A DNA stretch of 64,000 nucleotides from sequence record PQ824230.1; one strand, 5' to 3'. The DNA is from Enterobacter phage vB_Ecl_id4496. A program made the position numbers and the translations under genes. Numbering within the stretch: position 1 is the stretch's first letter; the number at the start of each line of letters is the position of its first letter. Positions 36,577-38,112 of the stretch are shown here, one piece after another. Under the pieces are notes generated by a model that had not been told where the DNA came from, did no database searches, and saw nothing but the letters and a program-made list of their open reading frames with translations.

Positions 36577-38112
36577 ATGGCTATAGATATTTGGACCACG
36601 GTACATCCTATTCCGTGGCGTAATACAAGTTTTCTTTACCTTCCTTGGTGGATTCATAACATCCTTATTAAAGCCAAGGAAGAAGGTAAAGATTGGCGTG
36701 AATACGCTGACCCTCAATATGCCCCTCAAATTGATACTCTCAAACAAGCTTATGTAGATTATGGTGAAGTTAATTTCATTGAATCTAAAAATGGTTATCA
36801 ATACACATTAAGCGAATATACTGTAGATGTTCCAGACCCTCAACCGCCGTTAGGACCAATGCTTCAACCGGTTGCGGTAATGTCAAATCCGCCTACTCAA
36901 AAATTGATTAAAGGCGTTGGATTATCTGGAACTGCTACTATAATTTCTGGTGGTACTGGATATGTGTTCGGAGATATTGTTGATATCCCCGGAGCAGAAG
37001 GAGATGTTCCTGGACAGATTCGAGTAACTGCTGTAGGTGCTGATGGCGCAATTACAACAGCTCAAATTCGCAAACCTGGTGTGTACGCAACTGCTCCTAC
37101 CGGTGAAATTTCAGCGACAGGCGGAACTGGCACAGGTGCTAAATTCACTGTAACAACTAATGCTGGTGTAGCTTCAACGATTTATGCTGGTGTAACGATT
37201 GCTCGTACTGATGCTAAAATCACTTATTGGGGTTCTGATATCAAAGACGCAGTTTCTGGGTTCAGAGGAAATGGTACCGGCAACGGAACTCAATGCCGAG
37301 TTAATTTCAAAACCGATTCAAGCAAAATTGATTTCAAACTCGCTGGCAATAACTCCAAGTATGATCTTTATGTAGATGGACAGCGTATTTCTGCAACTTC
37401 AGTCACTACTGATTCTTCTGGTGCAGTTTACATCTATAGCATCGATTGGAACGGTGTTGAGCAAATGCGTGAATATTCTCTGGTTGGCGTGAATACTGCC
37501 TTTGGTGGAATTTATGTTGATACTGGAAAAACTATCACTGCGATTACTCGTCCGGCTAAGATGATTTGGCAGCTTGGTGACTCTTACACCTTCGGTACAA
37601 TGGCAACTCAGGCGTCGTTTAACGACTTCCGTTTCTATTGTGATAAGCTTGGTTTAGTTGGATTAGCTGATGGCATCGGTGGTTCTGGTTGGACTTCAAC
37701 AAACTCAACTCAGCCTCAAGCTCGTATCACAGCTAAGCTTGCAACTCTGAGTTTCACTCCAGATATCATTACTTTAGCTTTAGGCTATAATGATGCTCCA
37801 GCCGGTAGAATTGATTTGCTCAAAACCAACTTCAGAGAGTCAATTGCTCTGATTAAGCAATATCAGCCACAAGCTAAAATTATCGTCTTTGGACCGGCAA
37901 CTCCTCTTGGAATGACTGACCAAATCGCAGCGGTTCGTGACGCACTGATTGAACTTACTACTGAGTTAGACTTAGAGTTCGTAGATGTTAAAGGTTGGGT
38001 TACTGCAGAGAACGCAAATCTGTATACCTCAAGCGATAACGTTCATCCGAATGACCAAGGATACTTCTGGCGTGGTTCGCAGTTCACTAACGTTCTGCAA
38101 GGTAAAGTATAA
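36577..38112 (+). CDS. SGNH/GDSL hydrolase-domain protein (511 aa), probable carbohydrate esterase with beta-rich N-terminal region
   Basis: C-terminal blocks I GDSYTFG, III GYNDA, V DNVHPND; Gly/Thr-rich N-terminal half (GGTGTGAKFTVTT); AAGGAGAA SD. Confidence 0.7.
   Translation: MAIDIWTTVHPIPWRNTSFLYLPWWIHNILIKAKEEGKDWREYADPQYAPQIDTLKQAYVDYGEVNFIESKNGYQYTLSEYTVDVPDPQPPLGPMLQPVAVMSNPPTQKLIKGVGLSGTATIISGGTGYVFGDIVDIPGAEGDVPGQIRVTAVGADGAITTAQIRKPGVYATAPTGEISATGGTGTGAKFTVTTNAGVASTIYAGVTIARTDAKITYWGSDIKDAVSGFRGNGTGNGTQCRVNFKTDSSKIDFKLAGNNSKYDLYVDGQRISATSVTTDSSGAVYIYSIDWNGVEQMREYSLVGVNTAFGGIYVDTGKTITAITRPAKMIWQLGDSYTFGTMATQASFNDFRFYCDKLGLVGLADGIGGSGWTSTNSTQPQARITAKLATLSFTPDIITLALGYNDAPAGRIDLLKTNFRESIALIKQYQPQAKIIVFGPATPLGMTDQIAAVRDALIELTTELDLEFVDVKGWVTAENANLYTSSDNVHPNDQGYFWRGSQFTNVLQGKV

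Follow-up and report, generated by a model that had tools for sequence, protein, structure and literature searches.

The role of the T4 head decoration protein Hoc has been debated for decades: laboratory growth does not require the protein, and suggestions for its function include attachment to mucus or cells and a pH-dependent dispersion of virions. T4 Soc, in turn, binds between the hexamers and is far more numerous than Hoc (870 copies). T4 Hoc is an acidic protein with three Ig-like domains and, at its C terminus, a capsid-binding domain, and its gene adjoins inh/uvsW. Enterobacter phage PG7 encodes a Hoc-like protein of 511 residues with an N-terminal capsid-binding domain and a C-terminal GDSL-like lipase/acylhydrolase domain, as well as a second, shorter Hoc of the Ig type (Fokine et al. 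2023, Viruses 15:1517, PMC10385173). That paper devotes one sentence to the long PG7 protein and says nothing of its middle domains, expression, origin, or function. In the literature that we searched on Hoc, Karamvirus, or head decoration in combination with SGNH or esterase, nothing further on this protein was found; the gene goes unmentioned in the Pet-CM3-4 and CIP9 papers, and in the Sf11 cryo-EM paper the word esterase occurs only in a reference.

We analyzed a 64,000-nucleotide stretch of DNA from Enterobacter phage vB_Ecl_id4496 (PQ824230.1), referred to below as the window, which encodes an orthologue of the long PG7 protein that is 97.8% identical to it, with no substantive difference. 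Since the PG7 orthologue was described in 2023, the architecture is already known, and the window adds context rather than a discovery. Sequence and model comparisons indicate, with a probability that we put at about 0.75, that the gene product is a second, enzymatic Hoc paralogue, in which an N-terminal capsid-docking domain carries a CE2-like SGNH esterase as its cargo. It is not an orphan early esterase.

The 511-aa open reading frame of the initial annotation proved to be real, and its features are collected in Table 1. The gene lies between dexA (33346..34035) and gene 39 (38593..40467), a position confirmed by syntenic annotated relatives, and T4 has only small genes in the corresponding slot, both as originally described. 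The product lacks a signal peptide, again as described, and also a transmembrane segment (maximum 19-residue Kyte-Doolittle mean, 1.28). Along its entire length it matched PHROG 9703, "head decoration" (E=1e-267), it also matched the Hoc-like PHROG families with E values of 5e-39 and 3e-36, and Karamvirus proteins annotated as hoc or head outer capsid protein are 95 to 99.8% identical to it.

Table 1. Features of the esterase gene and its surroundings (positions in the window)
Feature	Residues (aa)	Position	Strand	Basis or remark
Late-promoter-like element of T4 type, AATAAATA, a variant of TATAAATA		36545..36552	+	32 nt 5' of ATG
Shine-Dalgarno sequence, AAGGAG		36565..36570	+	6 nt 5' of ATG; read directly from the sequence
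CDS, predicted Hoc-like head decoration protein with esterase cargo	511 aa	36577..38112	+	ATG start, TAA stop; 55.1 kDa, pI 5.0
Hoc capsid-binding domain	1-77	36577..36807	+	T4 Hoc sequence match, 8t1x_X fold match, contact residues
Pro-rich flexible linker (LSEYTVDVPDPQPPLGPMLQPVAVMSNP)	78-105	36808..36891	+	pLDDT <50 at aa 85-88; both models lack secondary structure here
Beta-barrel resembling T4 tail-sheath gp18 domain I (moderate confidence)	106-196	36892..37164	+	Profile, Pfam, Foldseek
Beta jelly-roll	197-322	37165..37542	+	Packs on the catalytic domain as in CE2 esterases (Foldseek, 340-365 columns aligned to CE2 esterases and SsfX3)
SGNH/GDSL hydrolase domain	323-511	37543..38109	+	Pfam PF13472, invariant blocks
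GC-rich hairpin with UUCG loop (AAAGGGCC-TTCG-GGCCCTTT)		38115..38134	+	Terminator scan; 3 nt past the stop codon
Sigma70-like promoter of the next gene		38139-38167		Promoter scan; downstream of the hairpin

The N-terminal domain matched residues 294-361 of T4 Hoc (E=2.4e-9, phmmer) and the C-terminal domain of the short Hoc of vB_Ent31 (39% identity, E=2e-16, BLASTP). The AF2 model of aa 1-205 agreed with the fold of the Hoc capsid-binding domain, a four-stranded sheet with a three-helix bundle, and its sole significant PDB match in Foldseek was 8t1x_X (probability 1.00, E=5.4e-6), which superposed with an rmsd of 2.0 Å over 73 residues and a TM to target of 0.64; this fold is without other PDB relatives (Fokine et al. 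2023, PMC10385173). Among the 16 published contact or structural residues, nine are identical, three are conservative, and four are changed (Y293T, H299W, D313N, and Q354I). The counterparts of the gp23-contacting residues His295, Arg300, Trp309, and Trp310 of T4 are kept as H10, R15, W24, and W25, and the ESRNG loop (E-S-(R/K)-N-G-Y) is kept as E69-S70-K71-N72-G73-Y74. On the gp23 side, the docking loop G326-R344, read in the 99.8%-identical phage vB_Ent31, gp23 itself lying outside the window, is identical at 18 of 19 positions, with D336 and R344 kept. Compared with T4 Hoc (PDB 5vf3_Z and 8t1x_X), the domain is thus homologous in both sequence and fold, with the key gp23-contact residues conserved, and the whole protein is likewise acidic. 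Unlike in T4 Hoc, however, the capsid-binding domain stands at the N terminus, with a beta-barrel, a jelly-roll, and an SGNH esterase behind it; a Pfam search and the model revealed no Ig, Big_2, or PKD domains. With the docking domain at the opposite end of the protein, the geometry in which the cargo would project from the capsid is a prediction of the model.

This alpha/beta domain, in which aa 9-75 show clear homology to a characterized structural protein of T4, had been missed by the initial annotation, which described the N-terminal ~300 residues as one beta-rich region. The strings quoted from that region are present (GGTGTGAKFTVTT at aa 182-194 and NFKTDSS...YVDG at aa 243-268), and its beta-rich character holds for the beta-barrel and for the jelly-roll, which precedes the catalytic domain in a CE2-like manner; it does not hold for aa 1-77 or the linker, and the region is not a single one. 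The beta-barrel (pLDDT 96-97) was assigned with moderate confidence as gp18-domain-I-like, mainly because of a profile-sequence match, the family profile hitting gp18 residues 77-175 with E=2.5e-4 to 7e-4; Pfam Gp18_dom_I gave E=0.011, and the Foldseek matches to 3fo8, 3foa, and 9mkb (probability 0.75-0.89, E about 0.2-0.3) are weak alone. It is likely to be a spacer or a binding module.

We then compared the carriers of this cargo. In CIP9-type phages, a protein annotated as "hoc" or "lipase" (P0022) contains the same beta-barrel, jelly-roll, and SGNH cargo, with about 52% identity over aa 85-508, but as its anchor a Soc domain (PF16855, 39 bits; E=2e-14 against CIP9's own Soc) takes the place of the Hoc capsid-binding domain. 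The fusion gene lies directly 3' of soc and is preceded by the AATAAATA element, so that it shares with the gene studied here both the late-promoter motif and the location in a block of early-strand genes. No Hoc capsid-binding domain was found in CIP9 by tblastn, and the canonical hoc locus is empty there; no paper describing a Soc-esterase fusion or modular anchor swapping turned up in the literature searched. Homologous cargo, 45 to 58% identical, is also present in "SGNH/GDSL hydrolase" proteins of Enterobacterales prophages. One such homologue adjoins the tail-fibre genes of a Mu-like prophage, others lie within late (lysis/structural) gene blocks, and one (P0038) is fused to a tail-fibre N-terminal domain (PF08400), while siphophage Sf12 has a homologue in its head module. 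The SGNH esterases of tail fibres and tailspikes and these prophage proteins are tail-anchored or presumed so, whereas the 511-aa protein is predicted to be head-anchored and presumably monomeric, and the Pfam search detected no phage_tail_N or tailspike head-binding domain in it. A virion-borne esterase, doubted in the initial annotation, is the better supported alternative, though on the head and not as a tailspike.

In addition to the long protein, vB_Ent31 encodes a classic short Hoc of the Ig type, with Big_2 and a C-terminal capsid-binding domain, at the canonical locus. Such a dedicated short Hoc could fill the capsid sites, and the long protein could then be a soluble late esterase, freed at lysis and acting on debris, capsule, or biofilm, its Hoc-like N terminus being a relic or out-competed. 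Some of the T4 contact residues are indeed changed, and neither virion proteomics for phages carrying the gene nor evidence of packaging from it was found in the literature searched. We nevertheless consider this explanation unlikely. The capsid-binding domain is kept in orthologues from 98% down to 52% identity (window, PEi20, and S13), together with the ESxNG loop and the WW motif, and the independent Soc fusion in phages that show no Hoc domain speaks for capsid anchoring as the trait under selection.

The identification of the C-terminal part as an SGNH/GDSL esterase-type domain was borne out. Pfam Lipase_GDSL_2 (PF13472) matched aa 333-496 with E=4e-18 and 67 bits against a cut-off of 32.9 bits, PF00657 scored 28.4 bits against a cut-off of 23.6, and all the catalytic blocks are in place (I, GDS336Y; II, G366..G371; III, GYN405D; V, D487-N-V-H490), as are the three strings originally quoted (GDSYTFG at aa 334-340, GYNDA at aa 403-407, and DNVHPND at aa 487-493). 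Residues G334, D335, S336, G366, G371, N405, D487, and H490 do not vary among 59 homologs, the most distant of which have 31% identity, and the domain is predicted to be hydrolytically active. In NCBIfam, the only match was to the Rv0518 family of GDSL lipases and, at 27 bits, fell far short of the 300-bit cut-off. Structure prediction and Foldseek, suggested in the initial annotation, gave an esterase model with a pLDDT of 88, whose jelly-roll/SGNH pair aligned over about 340-390 columns with the two-domain CE2 carbohydrate esterases and with SsfX3 (E=1e-13 to 1e-16). The top structural match, SsfX3, is an acyltransferase and not a hydrolase; the CE2 structures 2wab, 2waa, 2wao, 4xvh, and 3u37 matched with E of about 1e-13 and a TM to target of 0.6-0.7. 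The CE2 enzymes (CtCE2, 2wab/2wao; CjCE2A, 2waa; CjCE2B, 2w9x; Est2A, 3u37/4dev) have an N-terminal jelly-roll and a C-terminal SGNH domain, as here, with just 12 to 17% sequence identity in the structural alignments. The CE2_N family (PF17996) stayed below threshold (aa 237-288, E=0.07, 13.6 bits against a 27.9-bit cut-off), and the model supports calling aa 197-511 CE2-like in fold, membership of the CE2 family not being demonstrated. Most CE2 enzymes reportedly use a Ser-His dyad, whereas the 511-aa protein keeps the canonical Asp487-x-x-His490. Two other identities were rejected: an Ape1-like peptidoglycan O-acetylesterase, given the poor global superposition on Ape1 (TM 0.24-0.34) and the fact that peptidoglycan is out of reach for a capsid-borne enzyme, and an AT3-SGNH O-antigen acetyltransferase of the lysogenic-conversion type, the membrane domain of which is absent.

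It may be asked whether the SGNH/jelly-roll pair catalyzes anything at all or is a non-catalytic adhesin, a lectin-like head fibre binding without turnover as the Ig domains of Hoc would. CE2 esterases use one site for both binding and catalysis (title of PDB 2w9x), and the roles proposed for Hoc are adhesive (Fokine et al. 2023, PMC10385173), but the invariance of the Ser, Gly, Asn, Asp, and His of the four SGNH blocks is the pattern expected under selection for catalysis and makes a pure adhesin quite unlikely. The nature of the reaction could also be different, not that of a carbohydrate deacetylase but that of an SsfX3-like acyltransferase or of a GDSL lipase acting on the acyl chains of LPS or on lipids of the outer membrane. 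The fold match to SsfX3, the best in the PDB, the sub-threshold Rv0518 match, and the label "lipase" in some GenBank records point in that direction. An activated acyl donor is absent, however, for an extracellular, capsid-borne enzyme, the two-domain structural matches are mostly carbohydrate esterases or peptidoglycan O-acetylesterases, and structural relatives among viral proteins carry tail-fibre or minor-tail-protein annotations, all of which renders this possibility rather improbable.

The initial annotation had pointed to the position of the gene on the early strand. Such a position is no evidence of early expression; the late-promoter-like variant AATAAATA lies upstream of the gene and likewise, 36 nt 5' of the start, before soc on the same strand of the window. 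An N-ATAAATA element at -32/-33 is kept despite diverged flanks across the phages compared, as AATAAATA in the window, Pet-CM3-4, S13, and the CIP9 Soc fusion and as CATAAATA in PEi20. No exact TATAAATA is found upstream of the gene, AATAAATA, which came to light only when the phages were compared, being a one-mismatch variant of it; in T4-like phages, position -13 is often occupied by A or T (Nolan 2006). The window contains four exact TATAAATA sites, without enrichment, and 10 [A/T/C]ATAAATA sites on both strands, eight of which lie 27 to 44 nt before ORFs; this gene, gp49, soc, gp34, gp36, and holin t account for six of these eight, and the gene thus has the motif in common with soc, gp36, and other late genes. 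A sigma70 promoter scan around the gene gave no convincing early promoter, with counts near the shuffled expectation. From these sequence comparisons we infer late expression from AATAAATA. The terminator scan found no terminator immediately upstream of the gene, so that early or middle transcripts might extend into it from upstream. An intracellular early acetyl-esterase that acts on host envelope precursors and alters host physiology or excludes superinfecting phage, as first suggested, would agree with such early read-through, with the co-orientation with early genes, and with the lack of a signal peptide, but is very improbable in view of the Hoc capsid-binding domain, the late-promoter motif common to soc, the homologous cargo on virion anchors or in late/structural modules of other phages and prophages, and a PADLOC search that returned 0 families at E<=0.01.

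If the product is indeed an enzymatic Hoc paralogue, its gene would be transcribed late from the gp55-type promoter AATAAATA, like soc, though co-oriented within the early-gene block. By homology, the 77-aa Hoc domain would dock as a monomer at the center of expanded gp23* hexamers where the ordinary short Hoc of the Ig type would be its competitor for the sites, of which a T4-size head has 155. The Pro-rich linker and the gp18-domain-I-like beta-barrel would, according to the model, hold the jelly-roll/SGNH esterase off the shell. Fold and conservation suggest that Ser336, the Gly371/Asn405 oxyanion hole, and Asp487-His490 would remove O-acyl groups, most likely O-acetyl, from a glycan. More speculatively, the enzyme may transiently bind and deacetylate O-acetylated surface polysaccharides of Enterobacterales (O-antigen, capsule/colanic acid, or ECA), and such a receptor-destroying or surface-gliding activity might prevent heads from getting stuck in capsule, biofilm, or lysis debris or might condition the surface for adsorption.

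A wider reading, which we offer tentatively and hold to be somewhat less than an even bet, is that the heads of T4-like phages of Enterobacter and its relatives bear an enzyme in a natural form of "phage display," with a single CE2-like O-acyl esterase cargo carried on both Hoc (Karamvirus, PEi20, and S13) and Soc (CIP9-type) anchors under selection as a head-borne receptor-destroying esterase. In function, such an esterase would be a counterpart of the haemagglutinin-esterases of influenza C and coronaviruses, and the stripping of O-acetyl from host or environmental glycans would leave capsids untrapped or the cell surface conditioned for infection. An enzyme-bearing Hoc paralogue would offer a concrete, assayable activity on the capsid surface, with the Ig-type Hoc of the same phage as a natural internal control. 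If it is active, phage heads, and not only tails, would join in the enzymatic interaction with host glycans, and engineered Hoc/Soc display platforms would have a natural precedent; penetration of capsule or biofilm by therapeutic Enterobacter and Cronobacter phages could be affected.

The prophage copies of the cargo come with a conserved partner ORF of ~100 aa, which is absent here, the neighboring ORFs of the window (86, 70, and 128 aa) showing no significant similarity to it. The hairpin that follows the esterase gene is likely a terminator or an RNA-stabilizing element closing the transcription unit.

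The 511-codon open reading frame in which the initial annotation saw an SGNH esterase was present exactly as given, and, as in annotated relatives, it is flanked by dexA on one side and by gene 39, for a topoisomerase subunit, on the other. The phage is a CC31/PG7-like, T4-type Karamvirus of Enterobacter, and the protein (here called esterase-Hoc) is 99.8% identical to that of phage vB_Ent31 and 95 to 99% identical to those in about 25 further records. It is also 97.8% identical to the long Hoc-like protein of PG7, and its architecture has already been published (Fokine et al. 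2023, PMC10385173). In GenBank and RefSeq the gene is labeled hoc, head decoration, or "Head outer capsid protein (c-part SGNH hydrolase)." Given that description and these annotations, esterase-Hoc is already known as an object; an enzyme-bearing Hoc is not a new discovery, but it gives experimenters a good way into the old debate over what head decoration proteins do. In the literature searched, we found no earlier account of the CE2-like two-domain fold and the spacer resembling gp18 domain I, of the late-promoter variant and its conservation, of a Soc-anchored form in phages without a detectable Hoc domain, or of the prophage-associated origin of the cargo (the part of the protein beyond the Hoc domain and linker). 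These points are computational inferences that extend the published observation.

Features of the esterase-Hoc locus and protein, and of the related fusion gene (window nucleotides unless marked otherwise)
Feature	Position	Strand	Remarks
esterase-Hoc CDS	36577..38112	+	ATG start, TAA stop, 511 aa
AAGGAG ribosome-binding site	6 nt 5' of esterase-Hoc ATG	+	from the sequence
GC-rich UUCG hairpin	38115-38134	+	after esterase-Hoc stop codon
soc homologue	28202-28438	+	78 aa, phrog_1715, 58% identical to CIP9 Soc
AATAAATA before soc	28166-28173	+	at -36, strand shared with esterase-Hoc
Hoc capsid-binding domain	aa 1-77 of esterase-Hoc		
Pro-rich linker	aa 78-105 of esterase-Hoc		pLDDT <50 at aa 85-88
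Beta-barrel	aa 106-196 of esterase-Hoc		gp18-domain-I-like
Jelly-roll and SGNH pair	aa 197-511 of esterase-Hoc		PDB fold matches
Soc-esterase fusion	L003:5803-7317 = NC_048849.1 77195-78709		Enterobacter phage CIP9

The N terminus, where the initial annotation had overlooked the Hoc domain, was assigned on several grounds. In PHROGs, the full-length protein fell into phrog_9703 ("head decoration," E=1e-267), and residues 1-86 and 1-153 matched "Hoc-like head decoration" families. Residues 1-205, modeled separately with AlphaFold (pLDDT 82), gave a single significant PDB match, which is specific, since the Hoc capsid-binding fold has no further PDB relatives (Fokine et al. 2023, PMC10385173). 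The published contact and structural residues of T4 Hoc were then transferred to esterase-Hoc through a HMMER alignment. His295, Arg300, Trp309, Trp310, and the Glu-Ser-(Arg→Lys)-Asn-Gly-Tyr loop (T4 Hoc numbering) were kept, Tyr304 and Trp306 were replaced conservatively by Phe and Tyr, respectively, and Tyr293, His299, Asp313, and Gln354 were changed. On the capsid side, the gp23 docking segment Gly326-Arg344 of vB_Ent31 is identical to that of T4 at 18 of 19 positions, with Asp336 and Arg344 retained. The acidic pI (5.0) is likewise similar to that of Hoc proteins. Sequence and model thus support a homologous Hoc capsid-binding domain and an intact gp23 docking loop, and a free soluble esterase is the less likely reading.

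The full-length model had a mean pLDDT of 88.3 and a pTM of 0.77. The family profile of the beta-barrel matched residues 77-175 (domain I) of the T4 tail-sheath protein gp18 (E=2.5e-4 to 7e-4), an assignment to which Pfam and Foldseek lent weaker support. Pfam Lipase_GDSL_2 matched residues 333-496 with 67 bits (curated cutoff, 32.9; E=4e-18), and the SGNH strings read earlier were found at residues 334-340 (GDSYTFG), 403-407 (GYNDA), and 487-493 (DNVHPND). The top PDB match of the jelly-roll and SGNH pair was SsfX3 (3skv, E=1.4e-16), which has the same two-domain layout, followed by the CE2 carbohydrate esterases 2wab, 2waa, 2wao, 4xvh, and 2w9x and Est2A (3u37, 4dev), with E values of about 1e-13 and a TM score to the target of 0.6 to 0.7, and more distantly by the peptidoglycan O-acetylesterase Ape1. 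Sequence and model therefore support an SGNH domain that has all its signature residues and forms part of a two-domain fold like that of CE2 enzymes; a lipase or an acyltransferase is less likely. Across 59 homologs, down to 31% identity, G334, D335, S336, G366, G371, N405, D487, and H490 were invariant, so each signature residue is under constraint. This argues for a catalytically active esterase, and a purely adhesive role is the less likely alternative.

Comparison with other phages gave evidence that capsid display is the property selected. vB_Ent31 also encodes a short Hoc of 185 aa (L005:19102-19659, minus strand) at the canonical hoc locus adjoining inh and uvsW, consisting of one Big_2 Ig-like domain and a C-terminal capsid-binding domain that is 39% identical to residues 9-73 of esterase-Hoc. 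One phage thus has two Hoc paralogues, which should compete for the same hexamer-center sites. In CIP9-type Enterobacter phages (CIP9, Entb_45, IME523, Q7622, and ZX14) an N-terminal Soc domain is instead fused to this cargo, which shares about 52% identity with that of esterase-Hoc over residues 85-508 (PF16855, 39 bits against a cutoff of 27; E=2e-14 to CIP9's own Soc). The fusion gene of CIP9 lies directly 3' of soc, behind a terminator, has its own AATAAATA element, and is misannotated as "hoc" or "lipase"; a literature search on such a fusion returned no paper. A tblastn search of CIP9 with esterase-Hoc found no Hoc capsid-binding domain, the sole match covering residues 85-508, and no gene occupies the usual hoc position between rnlB and inh. 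The same enzyme is therefore carried on another decoration anchor in a lineage without a detectable Hoc.

The initial annotation had taken the early-strand location as an argument against a virion role, and the comparison of upstream regions pointed the other way. At -32/-33 from the ATG lies an N-ATAAATA element, AATAAATA in the window, in Pet-CM3-4, in S13, and before the CIP9 fusion gene, and CATAAATA at the equivalent site in PEi20, which was kept across these phages while the flanking DNA diverged. In vB_Ent31, the bona fide late genes gp18, gp20, gp22, and inh are preceded by TATAAATA at -37 to -40. Conservation of the T at -13 is poor among T4-like phages, A and T both being common (Nolan et al. 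2006). On both strands of the window [A/T/C]ATAAATA occurs at 10 sites only, eight of them 27 to 44 nt 5' of an ORF, and six of these eight ORFs are gp49 (endonuclease VII), soc, esterase-Hoc, gp34, gp36, and holin t. All but esterase-Hoc are counterparts of T4 late-transcribed genes. The soc gene is a direct precedent, since it is a capsid-decoration gene co-directional inside the early block with the same promoter variant. The hairpin after the stop codon and a sigma70-like promoter before the downstream gene indicate that esterase-Hoc ends its own transcription unit. We infer late expression, to which early read-through may add. As stated initially, the protein has no signal peptide; none of its segments is hydrophobic enough for one or for a transmembrane helix. 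The enzymatic part of the initial reading held, and its view of an intracellular, early enzyme outside the virion is very probably wrong.

Another AATAAATA site (40463-40470, plus strand) lies 44 nt before a 51-aa ORF (40507-40662, plus strand; phrog_4369) directly after gene 39; this ORF may be a small late gene inside the early block. Just 5' of esterase-Hoc is an 86-aa ORF (36076-36336, plus strand; phrog_902) with a lipoprotein-type signal (MKVFVMGLIAAILSIGILSSC...), followed by a 70-aa ORF (36333-36545; phrog_13408) that is without annotation there in Pet-CM3-4, whose upstream sequence differs.

In the mechanism we favor, esterase-Hoc would be transcribed late and would dock through its Hoc domain, as a monomer, at the centers of expanded gp23* hexamers, vying with the short Hoc. 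The flexible linker and beta-barrel spacer would project the esterase from the capsid, where it would hydrolyze ester-linked O-acyl groups of a glycan, probably O-acetyl groups. More speculatively, its role could be receptor-destroying or "gliding," with the O-acetylated polysaccharides of the Enterobacterales envelope (O-antigen, capsule/colanic acid, ECA) as its targets, so that heads would not be trapped in capsule, biofilm, or debris, or the surface would be conditioned for adsorption.

Outside T4-type phages, the nearest cargo relatives were encoded by prophages of Kosakonia, Enterobacter, and E. coli and were 45 to 58% identical over residues ~90-511. In E. coli the copy belongs to a Mu-like prophage, at whose tail-fiber end it follows genes for a Gp34_trimer fiber, for a Caudo_TAP protein, and for a phage_tail_N protein; the Enterobacter copy lies inside a P2-like late operon. 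Immediately 5' of both is a partner ORF of about 100 aa (L006:7696-7998 in E. coli and L007:7690-7998 in Enterobacter asburiae; 56% identity, E=1e-29), which has no counterpart in the window. Its presence in two prophage types suggests that it forms a mobile two-gene cassette with the esterase homolog. In the metagenomic relative P0038, the cargo is joined to a phage_tail_N domain at a locus between lysis and terminase genes. A more distant relative, gp58 of the T1-like Shigella siphophage Sf12 (L009:3393-4685), is a 430-aa jelly-roll and SGNH protein whose gene belongs to the head-morphogenesis cluster, where its neighbors encode the prohead protease and the major capsid protein; it may be another head-associated esterase. 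Many BFVD structural relatives are annotated as tail fiber, minor tail, or neck-passage proteins. From these fiber-side, late-operon, and head-cluster settings, the cargo appears to be a mobile, usually virion-associated module that is head-borne in T4-like phages. In the Erwinia jumbo phages RisingSun (gp136, L010:3258-4739) and Joad, a 493-aa protein is about 48 to 50% identical to the full cargo (residues 100-511), and the N terminus of gp136, of about 80 aa, may anchor it to the virion in yet another way.
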